In this document: positions 4,946 to 52,261 of the stretch, in pieces | Layout: every line of letters begins with the position of its first letter | Position numbering within the stretch: the stretch's first letter is position 1 | Source: a phage | DNA: 64,000 nucleotides | Sequence record: PZ295659.1 | Direction: 5' to 3' (one strand) | Made by a program: the position numbers and the translations under genes | The notes under the pieces: model-generated | The model's database searches: none | Told to the model about the DNA's origin: nothing | Seen by the model: only the letters and a program-made list of their open reading frames with translations

Positions 4946-5947
4946 TTATTTCAGTAAAGTAACTTCAGAGATTTCCTCCCAACCATCTTTATCAGTTGAA
5001 ATAAAATCTGCTACATAAAGAGCCGTACGTAATGATACATTGCGAAGACGAGATACGTTAGCCTTCATCCAGGACAATGCTTTATACGTTTCTGCATCTG
5101 TCAGACCACGTTTCTGCATCATGTCAGTAGATAATATTACATCTTCAACTCGAACCATAATCTCTTCATTAGAGTGTACTCCAAGGTCGAGATACACTGA
5201 ACGAGATACTAAAGCTTGAAGGTGTGGGGCAAGTTTCGAACCGCGTTCTAACTCTTTATCGATATCAACGTTTGTAATGAAAACGATAGTACCTTCAAAC
5301 TCAAATTCTTTATCAATACCCTTATCATCGAGATAAGATGACGCAGTGCTCCAGCAAACTTTGCGTTTATCTCCGGTATCTAATGCTGCTTTAAGAAGGT
5401 TCAAGATGTCCATATCTGAGAATACGTCAACGTCGTCGATTAAGAGAACGCTGTCTGCATCACGGTTGAGCCAAAGTTGTTCGTAAAGACCAATACCAGA
5501 GATTTTACCATTAATGCTTTTGTATTTGATGAAACCGTTATCATTAGCATTATTAAGCGCTTTATCCAGAGAATACGTCTTACCAATACCTGCTGCACCT
5601 GAAATAATGAGTGAACGAATTTTGCCATCGATAATGCCATTCGTCATCATGTTCATTACTTTAAAGCGTTTGTTGATACGAGTTTTCATATCTTCAGTGC
5701 TTTCAACAACTGCAACTGGTGATGTCTCAGCTCCTTCCATTATGATGTCTGATTTGAAGACCCATACTCCACGTTCAGAACCATCGATCATAACGAAAAT
5801 TTTACCGTCACCTAAGTGGGAACATTCAGGATTAAGCTTTGCCGGGAACCATGTCTTTGTGGCAACATAAGAACCAGAGATTTCGTTATTACGATAGATA
5901 CCTTTTTTGATTTGAACGTTGAACATTTTATTCTCCAATTTACTCAT
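4946..5947 (-). CDS. P-loop ATPase (Walker A GAAGIGKT, Walker B LLIDDVD) with ~110-aa N-terminal domain
   Basis: 333-aa ORF; motifs read directly from translation. Confidence 0.6.
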   Translation of the reverse strand: MSKLENKMFNVQIKKGIYRNNEISGSYVATKTWFPAKLNPECSHLGDGKIFVMIDGSERGVWVFKSDIIMEGAETSPVAVVESTEDMKTRINKRFKVMNMMTNGIIDGKIRSLIISGAAGIGKTYSLDKALNNANDNGFIKYKSINGKISGIGLYEQLWLNRDADSVLLIDDVDVFSDMDILNLLKAALDTGDKRKVCWSTASSYLDDKGIDKEFEFEGTIVFITNVDIDKELERGSKLAPHLQALVSRSVYLDLGVHSNEEIMVRVEDVILSTDMMQKRGLTDAETYKALSWMKANVSRLRNVSLRTALYVADFISTDKDGWEEISEVTLLK

Positions 5948-15465: not shown

Positions 15466-16044
15466 TTAATTACCACGGGCTGCATTAGCAACGGCATAAG
15501 CGTACTGAACATTAGCGTCTTTAAACGTACCTTTAGAGGTATCTATTTCTGCCTTAAAGCCGCCTTTAGCCATAACATCGGCAAATTCTTTACGGAAAGC
15601 CATTGCATCAAGACCTTTCCATGATGATTTGTGCTTGGCGAATTCAAGACCAGCGTAGTTGACAGCCTTAGCTAATTTATTATCAATAACCCATTTACCG
15701 GCTTTAGGCACAAACTTCGGGCCTTTTTGTTTAGAGAACAGTTTTAAATTCCAGCGACGAAGATCACTGTCGGCTTTAACAAAAGCTGCGTCTAAGTTAC
15801 TAGCAACAACATCTTCAATATGAGCAAATTTAAGTCCGTCAACTTCAATATTTAGATCGTTACGCCAGCGAAGTCCTTCCCAAGCGAAGGCTTTAAAATC
15901 AGAAGCTTTTGTGGCTAGATATCGTTCAATTGGAGCAGTTTTAGGGTCAAAGCCGTTTCCACCACGATAAGTCCACTCGTCCTTATTAATGCCTTGAGCT
16001 TTTCCTGCAAAGGCCTCGGCGATAAATTCTTTATACGTTTTCAT
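15466..16044 (-). CDS. ipIII: internal head protein with capsid-targeting sequence (ipIII-like)
   Basis: N-terminus MKTYKEFIAE; 192 aa, similar in size to T4 IPIII. Confidence 0.6.
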   Translation of the reverse strand: MKTYKEFIAEAFAGKAQGINKDEWTYRGGNGFDPKTAPIERYLATKASDFKAFAWEGLRWRNDLNIEVDGLKFAHIEDVVASNLDAAFVKADSDLRRWNLKLFSKQKGPKFVPKAGKWVIDNKLAKAVNYAGLEFAKHKSSWKGLDAMAFRKEFADVMAKGGFKAEIDTSKGTFKDANVQYAYAVANAARGN

Positions 16045-16169: not shown

Positions 16170-16367
16170 CTACTTTAGGCTTGCTACAACATAAGCAATT
16201 TCACTACGTTTTGCATAGGTGTTGATTTCTTTACCATCGCCACCTAAGAAAAAATACCCATTACGTTTTAATGAGCCAAAGTCTTCCGCATCACCAATGA
16301 AAGCTTTAACTTTAAATTTAGGACCTTTGGCATCTGCTTCAGCGATAAATTCTTGATACATTTTCAT
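16170..16367 (-). CDS. small internal-protein-like ORF with capsid-targeting sequence
   Basis: N-terminus MKMYQEFIAE; 65 aa. Confidence 0.5.
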   Translation of the reverse strand: MKMYQEFIAEADAKGPKFKVKAFIGDAEDFGSLKRNGYFFLGGDGKEINTYAKRSEIAYVVASLK

Positions 16368-17646: not shown

Positions 17647-18105
17647 TTATAGGATGGTAGTGAGCACCTTATATAATGATTTGCCCATTACATATTCCCA
17701 TTGAGAAGGTTTAATTAAAGCGAATGCATCAAATTCAGGAATCTGTCGTCCGTCTGGGAATGTATGATAGGAATTACAAACACTGTTTCTGAATTGCTCG
17801 TGCTCTACAGGGATGGTATATAGGAACAGATGAATATTCTTATTGTCTGAGTAATGATGTTCACCTAGGTCTTTCAGGAAGGCAGGGTCATATTGTGTAA
17901 ACCCAGTTTCTTCTTCGCATTCACGAATAGCGGCTTCGATAGGAGATTCACCGGGCTCGACACGACCTTTAGGAATATCCCACCGATGAGCTAAAGAACC
18001 TTTAGGACGAGAACCAGTTACACGCCCCATGAATAATTCTTTATCTTCGGTAAGGAAAATAATACCAGCTGATAGTTCTTTCACTTTATTTTTCTTACTC
18101 ATCAT
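17647..18105 (-). CDS. nudE: Nudix hydrolase
   Basis: Nudix box GRVEPGESPIEAAIRECEEETG; immediately follows e as in T4. Confidence 0.8.
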   Translation of the reverse strand: MMSKKNKVKELSAGIIFLTEDKELFMGRVTGSRPKGSLAHRWDIPKGRVEPGESPIEAAIRECEEETGFTQYDPAFLKDLGEHHYSDNKNIHLFLYTIPVEHEQFRNSVCNSYHTFPDGRQIPEFDAFALIKPSQWEYVMGKSLYKVLTTIL

Positions 18106-18593
18106 CTCAAATTCCTGCATTCGGTAATAAAACGTTCAACTTCATTATTCTTGGCCTTTATCTTGTCTTTATGTTCTTGTAAACTACTTTTAATAAGATT
18201 AATAATGATGGCGGCGGTACCGCCGCCAATGATGCCACCAACAACACTTATGATAATAGATACTAATAAGATAGCAATAATATCAACAAAACCGAAAGAA
18301 CTCACCTTAGTACTGAAAAACCATATAGATGGTACAAATATAATCCATCCTGTTATCCATTGGCACTTATTGAAAAACTTTTCAAGCTCAGCTTGAGTTG
18401 TTCGTATTACTTCATCAATAGGTTGATATCCATTAATGTATCTGTTCACGATAATACCTGCTGGCTGGTCGATTTTAAATTCTTGGCAAATACGTTTCAC
18501 TAAGTAGGATGGACAGGATGTCCAATCTACTGAATAGTATGAAATACCTTCATTGCCGTCGTCTATATTAGACCAATATGTTTTGTTAATCAT
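18102..18593 (-). CDS. hypothetical membrane protein
   Basis: 163 aa; hydrophobic segments WITGWIIFVPSIWFF and IIAILLVSIIISVVGGIIGGG. Confidence 0.45.
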   Translation of the reverse strand: MINKTYWSNIDDGNEGISYYSVDWTSCPSYLVKRICQEFKIDQPAGIIVNRYINGYQPIDEVIRTTQAELEKFFNKCQWITGWIIFVPSIWFFSTKVSSFGFVDIIAILLVSIIISVVGGIIGGGTAAIIINLIKSSLQEHKDKIKAKNNEVERFITECRNLR

Positions 18594-19279
18594 TACCAGC
18601 CTTCCATAGGGAATTCCAGATAAACTTGAGCATTGACACGAATTTCATTGGTAATCTTTTTAACTCGGTCTGTATTACGAGATACACGTCCGAACCAACG
18701 CCATCCATTACTAATTGCACGAGAACCAGTGTGCCATGTTTGCCAATCAAACTGAAGAAGAGTACGATCTGGAGCTTCCCATTTCTCTAGTTCACCTTTT
18801 TCAATTTTTTCGAGGACTTCTTTGTGCCACTGACGATAGATAAGTTCGCCATCAGGAATCTGACTGAACTCTGCAGTTCCTGTTGCAAAATGAGTAGGAC
18901 ACACATCAGCGTTAACAAGACCAAGAATATGTTCAGACAAATAGCGAGGATTGTCATAATCAGGTTGTCCTGCAGTAATAAAGTGCTGACCAACTGGAAT
19001 ATCTGGGCGTGGTACGTCATCATGGTGATATCCAGGAATAGCAGGATACCAACCAGGCATCAGCATGTGGACTCGTGAATCAAATACTACATCCGAGTCT
19101 TTCCAATTATCAGGAAGATTTTGGATAAAGCTACGAGTAATTGGGCCGCCATTATCAAAAGCAAAATTCAAATCACAGTTAAAGAACATAGGCTCGTTTT
19201 TAATCTGGTCGTTTTTAATCGCATGAGCAAAACCACCTACTGCACGAGCTTGGCTATTAAACACTTTAGAACTATTCAT
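18593..19279 (-). CDS. hypothetical protein
   Basis: 228-aa ORF, ATG start. Confidence 0.5.
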   Translation of the reverse strand: MNSSKVFNSQARAVGGFAHAIKNDQIKNEPMFFNCDLNFAFDNGGPITRSFIQNLPDNWKDSDVVFDSRVHMLMPGWYPAIPGYHHDDVPRPDIPVGQHFITAGQPDYDNPRYLSEHILGLVNADVCPTHFATGTAEFSQIPDGELIYRQWHKEVLEKIEKGELEKWEAPDRTLLQFDWQTWHTGSRAISNGWRWFGRVSRNTDRVKKITNEIRVNAQVYLEFPMEGW

Positions 19280-19280
19280 A

Positions 19281-19586
19281 TTATTTTCCTCGACATTCTT
19301 TAATGAAATTTTCTAGATTGGTAGATTCAATAGCTTTTTTACGAGCTTCTGCGTGTTCTTCTTCAGACAATTTACATTTATAATTGACCCAGACATTATG
19401 GTCGAAACTAGTCGTGGCATATAATAACAATGCTCCGACGAATAATAAAAACGGTGATAAGAATACAAAACCGGGAACACCATCCATATCGTAAGCCTTT
19501 TGTAATACTGCAACAGAAAGGGCTGCGTAAAAAGGTGATGCAAATATTGTTAAAAGACCAATTCGGTTGGTTTCGCCTAATTTCAT
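19281..19586 (-). CDS. hypothetical membrane protein (two hydrophobic helices)
   Basis: 101-aa ORF, SD GAGGAG upstream. Confidence 0.45.
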   Translation of the reverse strand: MKLGETNRIGLLTIFASPFYAALSVAVLQKAYDMDGVPGFVFLSPFLLFVGALLLYATTSFDHNVWVNYKCKLSEEEHAEARKKAIESTNLENFIKECRGK

Positions 19587-19604
19587 AATATTCTCCTCAT
19601 GTTT

Positions 19605-19644
19605 TAATAGGACTACTATAACATAATCCTATAATTGTGTAAAC
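19605..19644 (-). promoter_or_regulatory. early-promoter-like element with inverted repeat ATAGGA...TCCTAT flanking the -10
   Basis: gtaaac at 19639-19644; taggactactataacataatcctat. Confidence 0.45.
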
Positions 19645-19656
19645 AGTTTTGTGAAG

Positions 19657-20613
19657 TTATTTGAAAGGTTTCACCATATGAAAATTTTCTTTAAACCGTT
19701 TGATGTAATCATCATGTCCTAAGCTTTGGTACATACTTACTACTTTGCTGTAGTTTTCCCAGGCGTATTCACGGAACCAACCGGAGGTGATGCTTGTACA
19801 GACTTTTTCCAATGCCATCATGAAACTGGCTTCAGGATTAATTTTAAAGTCATTAGGAATCTGAGAACGTTCTAATGCTAGTACACATGATTCTTCATAT
19901 ACACCGGCCAATTTGACCATTTCTGGTAAAGATTCGAACTTCTCGCGTGAGGTCATGACTTCAGAACCGTCTTTCATATAAAATGTATATGCTGGACGGT
20001 CTGTTAGTGCAATGGCTTCATGAATAGTATCATGGTCATATGTATAGATGTCATCTTTAAAGAACGCACTTTTAGAAGTGTCAAGAACTGGGTGAGCATA
20101 GTTCAAGGTTTCTTTCTGGCGTTTCAGCATAATTTCAGTAAGTTCATCGTTCAGTGTAACACCTTTACCACGAAGATACTGAATATGGTTCATAGTCTTT
20201 AAAAAGAATGGATTATTTTTCTTGAAACGATGAGACATCTTAATTGCAAGACATATCTCAGGAGTTGCCCAGTAAAACCCGTTCAAACGGTCTTTAGTCA
20301 AATTTTTCTTGGCGTATTTTAAAAGGTCATAAGAAGACGTGAAATCTTCAGGAGTGAGTTCACCGACTAATTCACGGACATTAGTGATTGCCGGAACAAT
20401 ATATGCTTCAAAATGAGTTTCGCGTCCATTATGGAAGCATTTGAAAACTTGGACATCAGGGTTATCTTGATGAACATATACACCCATCATTTGATTTTTG
20501 AACACATTCCAAGAACATTGGTCCGCAATAAAGTCCCAATCACTATTTTTGATAGCACTAGAATCAATAAGACCGTGATAGTGAAGTGCACGAGAACCAA
20601 TAACTAACATCAT
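19657..20613 (-). CDS. hypothetical protein
   Basis: 318-aa ORF, ATG start. Confidence 0.5.
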   Translation of the reverse strand: MMLVIGSRALHYHGLIDSSAIKNSDWDFIADQCSWNVFKNQMMGVYVHQDNPDVQVFKCFHNGRETHFEAYIVPAITNVRELVGELTPEDFTSSYDLLKYAKKNLTKDRLNGFYWATPEICLAIKMSHRFKKNNPFFLKTMNHIQYLRGKGVTLNDELTEIMLKRQKETLNYAHPVLDTSKSAFFKDDIYTYDHDTIHEAIALTDRPAYTFYMKDGSEVMTSREKFESLPEMVKLAGVYEESCVLALERSQIPNDFKINPEASFMMALEKVCTSITSGWFREYAWENYSKVVSMYQSLGHDDYIKRFKENFHMVKPFK

Positions 20614-20641
20614 AATATTTTCCTCGGATTAATTCATTAAC

Positions 20642-20893
20642 TTAAATTTCACGACATGCGGTATCATATTCATCCCAGAGGTCATCGTGTGAAGCCTCTA
20701 CCAATGGAACGATTGTACCATTTATATCTTCATTATAAGGACAAATTGTACAATGTGCATCTTCGAATCGGATGCCTTTGTGTTCAGATTTTTTATAACG
20801 CATATCGAATATCTTTGCAAACTTTTCACGAGTAATGGTTTTAGCAACCACTTCGGTTCTAATACTTTCGTAATAAATCATTGTGGGCTCCAT
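20642..20893 (-). CDS. hypothetical small protein
   Basis: 83-aa ORF. Confidence 0.45.
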   Translation of the reverse strand: MEPTMIYYESIRTEVVAKTITREKFAKIFDMRYKKSEHKGIRFEDAHCTICPYNEDINGTIVPLVEASHDDLWDEYDTACREI

Positions 20894-20900
20894 TTAATTT

Positions 20901-20940
20901 GATAGGACTACTATAACATAGCCCTATCTTGTTGTAAACT
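20901..20940 (-). promoter_or_regulatory. early-promoter-like element with palindrome GATAGGACTA...TAGCCCTATC around the -10
   Basis: gtaaac at 20934-20939. Confidence 0.45.
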
Positions 20941-20944
20941 GTTT

Positions 20945-21142
20945 TTAGCAAGAATAACTAGATGATACCCAGCCTTGAACAGTAATACTATTATTTGATA
21001 CCGAGATTGCGTTCTGGAGATTCAGACCTGCGTTATCTTCAATCCATAATGTAACTTCTTCGCGTTCTTCTGTTGCAATTTGGAACAGGTTTTCCAGGGC
21101 AGCTACTGCCGTACGTACAGCACAATCTAATTCACGAGACAT
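20945..21142 (-). CDS. hypothetical small protein, member of a tandem paralog trio (C-terminal GWVSSSxxC)
   Basis: Ends QGWVSSSYSC. Confidence 0.4.
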   Translation of the reverse strand: MSRELDCAVRTAVAALENLFQIATEEREEVTLWIEDNAGLNLQNAISVSNNSITVQGWVSSSYSC

Positions 21143-21151
21143 ATGATTTCC

Positions 21152-21424
21152 TTAACAAGTGTGAGAAGATGCAATCCAACCACCGGTTTCGAGGCTTAGG
21201 TTGTAGTCGTATTGGTAAACGTCAGCCCATTCAGCATAGCCGTTTTTTGTACAACGTTCAAGGTCGGCTTTAAGCTGTCCGGGTGAATGATAGGTTCCAC
21301 CCATACCATAAGCTGGATACAAGTCGAATGTTGTGTTTTGTTTATCAGCAATTTCTTTGGCGGCCTCAATAGCTGCATAGATTTTTGCTACAGCTTCAGC
21401 CAGTTCGGTTTGTTCTTTAGACAT
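21152..21424 (-). CDS. hypothetical small protein, tandem paralog (C-terminal GWIASSHTC)
   Basis: Shares YGxGxTYxxPG and the C-terminal motif with 21434-21739. Confidence 0.45.
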   Translation of the reverse strand: MSKEQTELAEAVAKIYAAIEAAKEIADKQNTTFDLYPAYGMGGTYHSPGQLKADLERCTKNGYAEWADVYQYDYNLSLETGGWIASSHTC

Positions 21425-21433
21425 AGTGATTCC

Positions 21434-21739
21434 TTAGCACAACGCAGAAGACGAAACCCAAGCACCTTCAGTAATAACGTAACCATTACCTTCACGCTTA
21501 ACATCGCCACCATTATTTTCAATTTCATTTTTCATCCACTGGGATACGATTTCACCCTTAGGATAATAAGTACGACCGCTACCATAATCACCTACAGAAA
21601 ATGATACGGCATATTGGTCTGCGATCTTTGTTGCTTCTTCTTCGATACGTTCAGCTTGATTCAGAAGTTTATAAATTGCATCTGAAGCGGATTTGGCATC
21701 ATTAAACTCTGGTACTTTAATTTCAATAATCTTACTCAT
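21434..21739 (-). CDS. hypothetical small protein, tandem paralog (C-terminal AWVSSSALC)
   Basis: 101 aa, see neighbours. Confidence 0.45.
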   Translation of the reverse strand: MSKIIEIKVPEFNDAKSASDAIYKLLNQAERIEEEATKIADQYAVSFSVGDYGSGRTYYPKGEIVSQWMKNEIENNGGDVKREGNGYVITEGAWVSSSALC

Positions 21740-22095
21740 TTTCTACATTCCTTAATAAAGTTTTTGATTGTTTCATTTTCACGTCTAGATAAGAGTTCAT
21801 TATAACTAATCATTTGAGAAGCGTAAACCTTTTTATTTTTCTTGTTATGGTTTATAAAATCGTAGTAAAAATAGACTACAGTACAAAATGATGCGATGGA
21901 TGCAAAGGCTTGGGTATACCGTAAGTCCTGCCATTGGTCTGTGAATCCACCAGTGTTCCCTATAAATCCTAACACAACGCCGTCAATAAGAAATCCAACT
22001 AATCCAAAGGCAAATCCCATGCCAATACTCATAATAAAAATTAGAATGTTCTCACCAAGAGAAGGCCATACGGTTAAGAGTTCAGGCTTTTGCAT
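21736..22095 (-). CDS. hypothetical membrane protein
   Basis: 119 aa, multiple hydrophobic helices. Confidence 0.45.
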   Translation of the reverse strand: MQKPELLTVWPSLGENILIFIMSIGMGFAFGLVGFLIDGVVLGFIGNTGGFTDQWQDLRYTQAFASIASFCTVVYFYYDFINHNKKNKKVYASQMISYNELLSRRENETIKNFIKECRK

Positions 22096-22469
22096 CTTAT
22101 CTCCTTAACGAATTCCATGGCTTCTTCATATTCATACTTTTTAACAGCTTCATCATACTGAGCTTGGGCTTTTGCGCACTGAACTTTCCATTCTCTTAAT
22201 CGGGCTCTGTGATGACGGCCTTGGTACCAATATCCCACCCAGTTAATAGGCATTAATAAAAACGGTACAATAAGTGGTGCGACGAACATTAATGAAAATG
22301 CTGCATCAGACGATATAACTTCACTAGAATCTAAAACAGCTCCTATAATCATAAAGATTAAAAATGCTAAAGCTAAAATAGGGCCAAATAGTACTTCGTT
22401 TGGGATTAATTTACGTTTGTATTCATACGCCCAGGGCTTAATTGGCATGTATAGGGTTGGCTTTGACAT
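22074..22469 (-). CDS. hypothetical membrane protein
   Basis: Track start is TTG; ATG at 22469 lies just after the upstream ECR-motif codons. Confidence 0.4.
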   Translation of the reverse strand: MSKPTLYMPIKPWAYEYKRKLIPNEVLFGPILALAFLIFMIIGAVLDSSEVISSDAAFSLMFVAPLIVPFLLMPINWVGYWYQGRHHRARLREWKVQCAKAQAQYDEAVKKYEYEEAMEFVKEIRCKSLNS

Positions 22470-23034
22470 ATTCTCTACATTCCATAATAAATTGCTCAAG
22501 GATTAAATTGTTAGTGAAATTAGGACTAACAACCATGGTTTCATAAAGCGCATCAATAGCACTTAAAGCATCAACTCTTTTAAGCAAAGGCTTGCCTTCA
22601 TACATAGTTTCAGAATCGACGATTAACGTAAAGTAATATTTTTTATTATTGACCAGAACTTCTGTATCAATATAAAACATGTTAGATCTTAAAAGCTTGT
22701 CTCTAAAACCATAATAATCTTCAGAGCGTTCGCTGATATATTCCCATTCAGTGTTTAAACAACAAACAGACCACGTAGGAGCAACGAAATCAGTGAATCT
22801 AATATCATGGTCTGCAACTAGTTTAGCAATAGCTCCGATATCATGAATCATAATACCTGGGGCTAATAAAGATTTTCGGTTATTTGCATATTCAGTTGTC
22901 TCATAAGAAGACGACCAGTACCATTTACGTCCAGTTGCAACATATCGTAATGAATCAACTAAAGACGTAGGTGGATTTACCTTATTTCGGAACTCTTCGA
23001 ACATTGAGTCAATATCATTATTTTGGTTTCGCAT
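22438..23034 (-). CDS. hypothetical protein
   Basis: Track start is TTG inside the upstream terminator; ATG at 23034 preferred. Confidence 0.45.
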   Translation of the reverse strand: MRNQNNDIDSMFEEFRNKVNPPTSLVDSLRYVATGRKWYWSSSYETTEYANNRKSLLAPGIMIHDIGAIAKLVADHDIRFTDFVAPTWSVCCLNTEWEYISERSEDYYGFRDKLLRSNMFYIDTEVLVNNKKYYFTLIVDSETMYEGKPLLKRVDALSAIDALYETMVVSPNFTNNLILEQFIMECREYVKANPIHAN

Positions 23035-23049
23035 GTTAACTCCTTTATT

Positions 23050-23075
23050 ATCCAAAAGGAGGACCGGAGTCCTCC
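23050..23075 (-). terminator. rho-independent terminator (GGAGGAC-UCCG-GUCCUCC + UUUUGG)
   Basis: 7-bp GC-rich stem at 23058-23075 followed on the minus strand by a T-run; downstream of 23084-23677. Confidence 0.6.
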
Positions 23076-23083
23076 GTATTATT

Positions 23084-23677
23084 TTATTTCAAAGAGTTAA
23101 TATATTCTTGTACATCAGCAGAAGTGGTTTCGACACCAGCTGGAGTGCCATTGAACGTTTCAACACGAGTCAGAGTGTCTTCGATATCAACCTTAGTTAG
23201 TGCAGCGATTTCAATTACATCATCAGCCGTAGAGATACCAAGGGCATTGGCTGCTCGAGTTTCACGAATGTATTCGAGTTTGATTGCCAGATTCTGACGA
23301 GCATCGTCAAGTTCAACCACCTTACGAGCAATTTCAATTCGCATAGCGGCATACCCGTCAGCTTTTGTATTAAGTTGTTCGGCAGTTCGACGATACAGAA
23401 GACCAAGCTTAGCATGCATGGTAACATCTTGTCCTTCAGCCAGGAGCTTACGAATTTCACGTTCCTTAGAAGCGGCTTGCTTATTCTTTTCAATAACAAG
23501 TTCGCGAATACGTTTTTCTTCATTAATAGATTTAACAGAAGCCGTTTTTAGTTCTTTGATTTGGGTAATCAACTTATCTGCAGCTGCGTTATACTGTTCT
23601 TCAACAGTCAGATTTTTAGCCATAGCAGTACCCAGTTTAGTGCGGATGAATTCAACAAGTTTCTTCAGTGTGTTCAT
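23084..23677 (-). CDS. hypothetical coiled-coil protein
   Basis: Track start is TTG; ATG at 23677 (MNTLKK...); long heptad-like K/E/R-rich helices. Confidence 0.5.
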
Positions 23678-24840: not shown

Positions 24841-25404
24841 TTATTTACCTAGTTTAGTTATTATAGCTTCGGCAGCAGCTTTTAGCTTAGATGCAGTGTT
24901 AATACGATTTTTAATTTCAGTATACGCATCGCCAAGAACATCAAGGCTATCAGAATAAACACTTACACTATTGCGTTCGCTATTTGAAATAGAACCTTTA
25001 GTTTTACGATCAAAATCAGTGTACACGTCTTGAAGATCACGGGCTGCCTTCTTTGCATCATCCAATGCATCAAGAGCTTTATTCAAAGCATTGACATATT
25101 TTTTAGTGTCAAACATATTCTTAGAAATTTTAACAGGTGCACGTTCAGGAGTAGCTAAGGCGGATTTAGGAACCTGCGTGCCAGATGCCAGTTTCTTAGA
25201 AATTTTGAAAAACGCTTTATTGAAACTATTTTCTTGACTCATCGTAAAAGAACTAGTATCGATGTTATACATTTCAATAGCTTTAGCTTTCCACTTAAGA
25301 AAATCGCCACGGTCTTTTGGATCCAAGTGGAAGAATACTTTAGTAAGATCTGCTTCAGATGGTAATTTTGCTGCTTCTGTTAAAAATTCGGCATAGGTTT
25401 TCAT
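24841..25404 (-). CDS. internal-protein-like ORF with capsid-targeting sequence
   Basis: N-terminus MKTYAEFLTE; 187 aa. Confidence 0.5.
   Translation of the reverse strand: MKTYAEFLTEAAKLPSEADLTKVFFHLDPKDRGDFLKWKAKAIEMYNIDTSSFTMSQENSFNKAFFKISKKLASGTQVPKSALATPERAPVKISKNMFDTKKYVNALNKALDALDDAKKAARDLQDVYTDFDRKTKGSISNSERNSVSVYSDSLDVLGDAYTEIKNRINTASKLKAAAEAIITKLGK

Positions 25405-49935: not shown

Positions 49936-52261
<2,326 letters not shown>

Follow-up and report, generated by a model that had tools for sequence, protein, structure and literature searches.

In tight operons, and among the early genes of bacteriophage T4, it is usual for the Shine-Dalgarno (SD) sequence of a gene to lie in the 3′ end of the gene upstream, for stop and start codons to overlap in ATGA-type arrangements and for the translation of neighbours to be coupled. 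T4 also carries a short terminal peptide on otherwise unrelated internal proteins, the N-terminal capsid-targeting sequence (CTS) MKTYxEFIxE, which directs packaging and is cleaved by the gp21 prohead protease. T4-type phages, in turn, have mobile regulatory cassettes known as promoter-early stem-loops (PeSLs; Arbiol et al. 2010, PMC2839356; Comeau et al. 2014, PMC4122927), and phage PST, to which we return below, was among the phages analysed in the later paper (PMC4122927). Here we describe a cluster of early genes in a 64,000-nucleotide stretch of phage DNA (sequence record PZ295659.1, referred to at its full length as the window) in which several proteins end in F-I-x-E-C-R or a close variant of it, and set it against these three systems.

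We propose that this recurrent ending is probably, though by no means certainly, a conserved protein motif, [L/I/V]-x-x-[F/W]-[I/V]-x-x-C-R, dual-coded with the ribosome binding site (RBS) of the next gene. In T4-type enterobacterial phages, a set of co-transcribed early proteins from the e.2-e.5 module would have the motif at the C-terminus or close to it, the carriers being small membrane proteins (e.2, g101, e.3 and e.4) and a few soluble ones such as e.5, which together would represent at least eight PHROG families. As the genes are packed head-to-tail, the same 18-30 nucleotides (nt) must also hold the next RBS, and the SD would be fitted either into the two free positions of the motif (AAG GAA, AAA GGA or GAG GAA) or into the Arg codon and the codon that follows it (TGC AGG AAx or CGA GGA). 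Where the next start has moved away, the SD would come off the motif and the peptide would be retained. The tail may have reached unrelated protein bodies through recombination at the tail/RBS junction, and its most likely role would be a common protein-protein contact, either for assembly of the carriers or with a partner common to them. Incidentally, the repeated tail and RBS provide 9-20 nt of direct-repeat homology, by which at least one whole gene has been precisely deleted.

The window comes from a Mosigvirus (RB69-like, T4-type), and its positions 18000-23100 are 96-97.5% identical to Escherichia phages S143_2, HX01 and mogra. Judged by gene order in annotated relatives and in T4, the minus-strand genes between nudE (e.1) and e.6 correspond to the T4 e.2-e.5 early cluster with Mosigvirus-specific inserts. 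The five carriers, their lengths in amino acids (aa), their motif copies and the two flanking genes are as follows.

17647-18105, minus strand: nudE (e.1), flank of the cluster.
18102-18593, minus strand: e.2 homolog, predicted membrane protein of 163 aa, PHROG 2203, ending ...VERFITECRNLR and stop; motif copy 1 at 18114-18131, minus strand, TTT ATT ACC GAA TGC AGG = FITECR, 3 residues from the stop.
19281-19586, minus strand: g101 (RB69ORF133-like), 101 aa with two hydrophobic segments, PHROG 9798, ending ...LENFIKECRGK and stop; motif copy 2 at 19290-19307, minus strand, TTC ATT AAA GAA TGT CGA = FIKECR, 2 residues from the stop.
21736-22095, minus strand: e.3 homolog, membrane protein of 119 aa, PHROG 2330, ending ...IKNFIKECRK and stop; motif copy 3 at 21742-21759, minus strand, TTT ATT AAG GAA TGT AGA = FIKECR, 1 residue from the stop.
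22074-22469, minus strand: e.4 homolog, membrane protein of 131 aa, PHROG 2604, ending ...MEFVKEIRCKSLNS and stop; motif copy 4 (degenerate) at 22095-22112, minus strand, TTC GTT AAG GAG ATA AGA = FVKEIR.
22438-23034, minus strand: e.5 homolog, soluble protein of 198 aa, PHROG 2607, ending ...YVKANPIHAN; motif copy 5 at 22474-22491, minus strand, TTT ATT ATG GAA TGT AGA = FIMECR, 11 residues from the stop.
23084-23677: e.6, the other flank of the cluster.

A preliminary description of this DNA, made from the letters alone, had four of these genes ending in nearly identical peptides. The open reading frames (ORFs), coordinates and peptides are indeed present on the minus strand, but FIMECREY is not the C-terminus of e.5, in which ten further residues follow because of a 32-nt overlap with e.4. 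When the window was scanned in six frames, F-I-x-E-C-R was found in real ORFs at only four sites, all of them gene ends and 1-11 residues from a stop, and a looser pattern added a single match, IVLECR at 51706-51723, which is 22 codons inside a stop-to-stop frame and probably non-coding. From residue frequencies we estimate a chance expectation of about 0.01 strict motifs in the 128,000 six-frame residues. The complete T4 genome (168.9 kb, six frames) matches F[IV]..CR three times, in e.5, in e.3 and in the e.2 remnant just upstream of nudE. Both scans thus place the motif only at gene ends, and not at equal frequency inside genes, the outcome that the preliminary description had named as fatal to its proposal; the motif is junction-specific, far beyond chance. 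Indeed, composition in an AT-rich genome would give the relaxed F[IV]..CR about 1.7 times in the six-frame window, and three extra matches do stand in non-coding frames, but it would not give four strict copies and one degenerate copy that all belong to real ORFs, all lie at C-termini and all fall in one 5-kb operon. As the same positions are conserved in the orthologs of six lineages, chance is already refuted, and we assign it a negligible probability.

To follow the motif beyond the window we drew together 24 copies from six lineages, namely Mosigvirus (the window), Tequatrovirus (T4 and IMG/VR loci), Dhakavirus WG01, Gaprivervirus VR7, Enterobacter phage MY742 and Klebsiella Marfavirus F48, among which the conserved residues are [F/W]-[I/V]-x-x-C-R. 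Summed over the six codons, the information is 7.65 bits at first positions, 8.80 at second and 3.39 at third, and variation thus concentrated at third positions is the mark of selection on protein. For Cys, 11 copies use TGT and 8 use TGC; Arg is AGA, AGG, CGA, CGT or CGC, and Phe is TTT or TTC. The SD occupies motif codons 3-4 in 12 copies and the Arg codon with the one that follows in 6; in 3 it lies past the motif, and in the remaining 3 its place is unclear. Within e.2 alone it migrates, T4 and Mosigvirus having TGC AGG AAx, Dhakavirus AAG GAA ... CGT, Gaprivervirus GAG GAA ... CGT and MY742 AAA GGA, and despite this migration the peptide is F-I-x-x-C-R in each of them. The peptide is also kept where the SD lies 1-20 nt past the motif, as in Dhakavirus ORF134, the e.5-like gene of MY742 and the Marfavirus gene at the e.5 position (FIKHCR). 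ORF134 reads FIAECREYAK, encoded up to the Arg by TTT ATT GCT GAA TGT CGC, in which there is no purine run, the next SD (GAGGT) being four to five codons downstream; its LDRFIAECREYAK matches LEQFIMECREYVK of e.5 at 9 of 13 positions, and the remainder of the two proteins cannot be aligned. The MY742 homolog of e.5 (163 aa aligned at 21% identity) retains FVDQCR, 31 nt ahead of the next start, and the alignment of e.5 shows no change in the motif columns between clades whose overall identity is 46%.

Orthologs keep lineage-specific versions of the motif, such as FITECR in e.2 of T4 and Mosigvirus and ECREY[VA]K in e.5, which points to old conservation; recent gene conversion among the copies is ruled out, since the likeness of ortholog to ortholog exceeds that of paralog to paralog. 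To judge from these alignments, the comparison shows the motif to be older than the split of the Tequatro-, Mosig-, Dhaka-, Gapriver-, MY742-type (Karamvirus-like) and Marfavirus lineages, and it shows purifying selection on the amino acids to be what keeps it. We did not find the motif in the equivalent regions of a Serratia Muldoonvirus and an Aeromonas Biquartavirus.

Several points weigh against reading the ending as a protein motif. The 24 copies amount to a handful of genomes rather than a full codon-level dN/dS analysis; in 22 of them the motif ends no more than 10 nt from the next ATG, so that peptide and RBS constraints are confounded in most, and the argument for protein conservation leans heavily on the three e.5-position genes. 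The motif Arg codons of the window are AGG, CGA, AGA, AGA and AGA, whereas CGT and CGC make up 65% of all Arg codons in the window, and such purine-rich or CGA codons imply that nucleotide-level selection acts too. Between T4 and the window, 24 nt of e.5, GAATGTAGAGAATATGTCAAAGCC, are identical even at synonymous sites, an identity that we attribute to the overlap with the start of e.4. The Cys is lost in e.4 and in two other copies. Furthermore, none of the five carriers matches a Pfam family above its curated cut-off, and a Foldseek search of the PDB with an AlphaFold2 model of e.5, itself of low confidence (pLDDT 65), returned no structural relative (best E-value 0.02, TM-score < 0.26).

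The five window junctions are arranged as follows, with their stop-to-start distances.

e.2 to nudE, minus strand: SD AGGA at 18113-18116, in the Arg codon and the next base (TGC AGG Aat), 7-nt spacer; nudE ATG at 18103-18105 or 18100-18102; distance -4.
g101 to g228, minus strand: SD GAGGA at 19287-19291, in the Arg and Gly codons (CGA GGA), 7-nt spacer; ATG at 19277-19279; distance +1.
e.3 to the next gene, minus strand: SD AAGGA at 21749-21753 (with its flank, TAAGGA), in the K-E codons, 9-nt spacer; ATGA overlap with the start at 21737-21739; distance -4.
e.4 to e.3, minus strand: SD TAAGGAG at 22101-22107, in the V-K-E codons, 5-nt spacer; e.3 ATG at 22093-22095, overlapping the Arg codon; distance -22.
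e.5 to e.4, minus strand: weak SD only, GGAA at 22480-22483 with an 11-nt spacer or GAG with 3 nt; e.4 ATG at 22467-22469, 4 nt past the Arg codon; distance -32.

In four of the five, the SD core lies within the upstream ORF, 5-9 nt ahead of the next start, and overlaps or spacers of at most 1 nt are a geometry that would fit translational coupling. The next start adjoins the motif, as had been described: for each of the five window copies, and for 22 of the 24 overall, its ATG is placed -1 to +10 nt after the Arg codon. ATGA stop/start overlaps, reported as frequent, are present from e.2 to nudE and from e.3 to the next gene, but not at g101 (TAA T ATG) or e.5. The codons ATT-AAG-GAA, and with them AAGGAA, had been ascribed to each copy and are found only in e.3, the others reading ATT AAA GAA (g101), ATT ACC GAA (e.2) and ATT ATG GAA (e.5); e.3 is likewise the only F-I-x-E-C-R copy in the window whose K-E codons supply AAGGA.

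These junctions could be taken as a reused nucleotide cassette of U-rich leader, SD, spacer and ATG that serves initiation and coupling of the downstream gene, the peptide being a mere read-out. Such a cassette would account for the closeness of the next ATG, for an SD core that overlaps the motif or the following codon in 18 of 24 copies, for the purine-rich Arg codons, for the position of the motif in e.5 of T4 and Mosigvirus, where it follows the start of e.4 and not the end of the protein, and for a 22-nt direct-repeat family (D4) whose three copies, 18110-18131, 21738-21759 and 22470-22491, are 77-91% identical. We nevertheless consider it unlikely. One of the four cited copies contains AAGGAA, the SD falls in varying codons and in three copies outside the motif altogether, and third positions hold less than half the information of first or second positions. 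Neither in the window nor in T4 does the cassette appear out of frame or within an intergenic RBS of another gene, and its absence from other junctions rules it out as a general RBS element; the generic RBS repeat of the region is a different sequence, CGAGGAAAATAWTATGA (family D6). Moreover, 49 of the 95 same-strand junctions of the window, with at most 12 nt from stop to start, embed the SD in the upstream ORF, which makes such embedding routine, and their C-termini are unrelated to the peptide, which no junction outside the motif carriers yields. The RNA of the five window junctions has no common fold (folding z-scores 0.33, -2.01, 1.03, -0.18 and -0.08). The embedded RBS is real yet secondary, and in this genome neither the embedding of an SD nor the coupling geometry is unusual.

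The same counts do not support the SD as the cause of the peptide, as the preliminary description would have it, with AAGGAA in one of four cited copies, the SD in three different places and variation at third positions. Its further statement that the embedded SD constrains the C-terminus survives in part. Residues 3-4 are K-E, K-G or E-E exactly where the SD occupies them, and these two residues together with the choice of Arg codon are all that the SD plausibly shapes. As for the D6 repeat itself, its copies at 19276-19292, 19583-19599 and 20610-20626 are 82-94% identical and lie upstream of three different genes, and in the copy at g101 the first bases are translated as Arg-Gly-Lys-stop.

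The closeness of the motif to the stop, 1-6 residues in most copies, and an Arg that is often a rare AGG or AGA beside an ATGA overlap could also be read as a nascent-peptide effect, whereby the C-terminal residues and rare codons slow the ribosome before the stop and so tune termination-reinitiation. We hold this to be very improbable, given that the motif lies anywhere from 1 to 13 residues before the stop and is separated from the next ATG by -1 to 31 nt, and that Arg is CGT or CGC in six copies; nor is the motif known to resemble any arrest peptide, which also counts against such an effect.

Returning to the conserved protein motif that we favour, its carriers have little else in common. 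BLASTP among the five window proteins finds similarity restricted to the last 9-32 residues, the tails of e.2, g101 and e.4 aligning over 28-32 aa (E = 0.003-0.009), and e.5 and the soluble proteins of 94-99 aa in MY742 and F48 have in common only a tail of 9-13 aa. The exception is the pair e.3 and e.4, which are weakly similar (22% identity over 83 aa, E = 0.069; T4 e.3 matches the e.4 PHROG at E = 0.007). Dhakavirus WG01, MY742 and Marfavirus have one gene at the position of the two in T4 and Mosigvirus, which makes e.3 and e.4 probably tandem paralogs. The five window carriers belong to five separate PHROGs, none with an assigned function, and the window e.2 is homologous to the N-terminus of T4 e.2. 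The only Pfam match of g101, PcfK-like (E = 0.005), was rejected because its 17 bits fall short of the cut-off of 27. A rhodanese-like C-R-x-G active site, considered because of 'sulfurtransferase' labels in some GenBank records, was also set aside, as PHROG and Pfam do not support it. Our literature searches returned no paper on the T4 e.3, e.4 and e.5 genes and no description of the motif.

The hydrophobic residues are spaced at i, i+3, i+4 and i+7 (L-x-x-F-I-x-x-C), a pattern that suggests one face of an amphipathic helix, and in the AlphaFold2 model of e.5 the motif lies in the last helix, residues 177-192, 11 residues ahead of the stop. By the positive-inside rule, the tails of e.2, g101, e.3 and e.4 should face the cytoplasm. 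More speculatively, and with the balance tilted against it, F-[IV]-x-x-C-R might be a portable functional C-terminal tag, a short amphipathic helix with a reactive or ligand-binding Cys-Arg that marks T4-type early proteins, both the membrane proteins e.2, e.3, e.4 and g101 and the soluble e.5 and 94-99-aa proteins, for one partner or fate; a single membrane complex, a shared host target and timed proteolysis are candidate roles. Such a tag would parallel the CTS of internal proteins and would pass from one gene body to another by recombination where tail and RBS meet.

A profile of the five tails run against 1.84 billion representative proteins retrieved only clusters and fragments of Mosigvirus e.2, e.3 and g101, one chimera (P0015) and one TPR protein, the last being probably a false match. 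A search for related loci in IMG/VR returned five loci only, and homolog searches with e.5 and e.3 returned only close relatives. P0015, from a public assembly, is a predicted protein of 60 aa in which a shortened e.3 (through ...RENETIE) is joined to the e.4 tail AVKKYEYEEAMEFVKEIRCKSLN, and represents either a rearranged phage or an assembly artefact.

Gene loss in the region bears on whether the tail is a linker for recombination. The e.2 gene is precisely absent in T2, PST, PP01, RB33 and others and in IMG/VR locus L008, where e.3 ends ...FVIDCRKLK and runs straight into nudE. A three-way comparison maps the crossover within TGCAGGAAA, common to the e.3 and e.2 tails, and the single-piece junction without e.2 was found in 8 of 26 sampled full-coverage Tequatrovirus hits. 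Tail and RBS might then have been kept as PeSL-like homology for module shuffling and captured at each exchange, with the peptide neutral. The precise e.2 loss favours this, as do the presence of the tail on non-homologous bodies, ORF134 of Dhakavirus and e.5 matching over 13 aa only, the PeSL-type shuffling documented in T4-type phages (PMC2839356, PMC4122927) and the PeSL-like elements of the same region. We think it improbable, since a neutral peptide is incompatible with third-position-specific variation and with the retention of F, I/V, C and R over six lineages whose codons have diverged, paralogous copies in one genome have only about 9-20 nt in common, and the cassette was used in one of four regional indels. 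The suggestion of the preliminary description that the cassette may mark recombination junctions is supported by the loss of e.2 and not by the other three indels, which use other sequences. The window, S143_2, RPN187, AV113 and AV112 are without the 78-aa RB69ORF130c, which occupies the e.2-nudE gap in other Mosigviruses (window 18100-18120 against L002 3096-3347), and the loss junction is a 7-nt direct repeat, GAGATGA, at two start sites. ATK47 has a 72-aa ORF between two PeSL-like elements (L002 4807-5160) that is not in the window, and Shigella phage ESh15 has an internal deletion in e.3 (L009 ~4975-5000), by which a 'tail-only' e.3 match was ruled out as a tail transplanted to another gene.

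The ESh15 deletion stops exactly at the GTTTAC of a near-perfect early-promoter-like site, GTTTAC-N17-TATAAT, which in the window lies within e.3 at 21799-21828 (minus strand), about 60 nt upstream of the motif, and it leaves both this site and the tail intact. A 48-nt repeat at 19603-19650 and 20898-20945 (83% identity) combines an early-promoter-like GTTTAC...TATAGT with an ATAGGAC/GTCCTAT stem and is PeSL-like. In the T4 reference, e.2 (L003 17484-17960 = T4 67484-67960) is split into three short ORFs, the annotated e.2 of 102 aa and two that are unannotated, the last of which ends ...NNFITECRKLK and stop ahead of nudE, and in Tequatroviruses L005-L007 e.2 is intact, at about 160 aa. Within the transmembrane coding region of the window e.2, a GC-rich perfect palindrome, TGGCGGCGGTACCGCCGCCA, at 18209-18228 scores as a terminator-like hairpin, and is probably what is annotated as a repeat_region in e.2 of phage mogra.

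Two further features of the cluster deserve mention. The gene downstream of g101, g228 (18593-19279), encodes a protein of 228 aa and is the best-conserved gene of the region. Its relatives range from T4-like enterobacterial and Aeromonas phages to phages of Mycobacterium, Gordonia and Bacillus, in which identity falls to about 30%; it is without a Pfam match and without a relative among solved structures. The same operon also holds a second recurrent C-terminus, in that three tandem paralogs on the minus strand, 20945-21142, 21152-21424 and 21434-21739, end in W-x-x-S-S-x(0-3)-C and a stop. Among 15 copies of this ending from Mosig-, Dhaka-, Marfa- and Muldoonviruses, all share the W, one S and the terminal C, and 14 have the second S. 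In the two window copies examined for it, 21152-21424 and 21434-21739, the TAA stop runs into the SD that follows (TGY TAA GGA A).

The e.2-e.5 genes are conserved T4 early genes, and a Cys-Arg motif shared by at least eight families in six lineages would be the first hint that they act jointly or on one partner, with the motif offering a precise mutational handle (C to S, R to K and tail swaps). Furthermore, the locus would provide a clean natural case of dual coding, the SD shifting between two slots in a conserved peptide and shaping only its free residues and synonymous Arg codons. It also indicates that a repeated coding tail and RBS can act in a PeSL-like manner, excising a gene with its neighbours undamaged. 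General principles are unchanged by the finding, as the locus is a new example of known phenomena, namely a conserved terminal motif, dual coding and the loss of a gene through short repeats.

Set against ordinary SD embedding, the motif genes are alike in that they overlap or abut the next start and in that the SD shapes residues 3-4 and the Arg codon; ordinary embedding, however, gives diverse C-termini, whereas here a peptide of six to nine residues is conserved beyond the needs of the SD and persists with the SD elsewhere. With PeSLs the locus shares a short repeat at gene boundaries in a hyperplastic region that ends in SD and start codon, and the clean removal of a gene by recombination between two copies, here e.2 in T2/PST/PP01-type phages. 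PeSLs differ in being intergenic and defined by an early promoter and a stem-loop, while the motif cassette is coding, promoterless and devoid of a conserved hairpin. The 18-22 nt of the motif hold no promoter hexamers, promoter-like sites lying elsewhere (19615-19643, 20910-20938 and 21799-21827), and since the junctions share no RNA structure the cassette is not a PeSL as defined in PMC2839356. Identity with the CTS or with a gp21 site (I-x-E) was considered and rejected on the grounds of the wrong terminus and protein class, the carriers beginning MINKTYW, MKLGETN, MQKPELL, MSKPTLY and MRNQNND; what we take to be examples of the CTS in the window are at 15466-16044, 16170-16367 and 24841-25404. 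The likeness to the CTS is that of a short terminal peptide on unrelated bodies, within one phage lineage and a plastic region, and the CTS even contains F-I-x-E; the motif described here differs in being C-terminal, carried by early and mostly membrane proteins, and centred on Cys-Arg.

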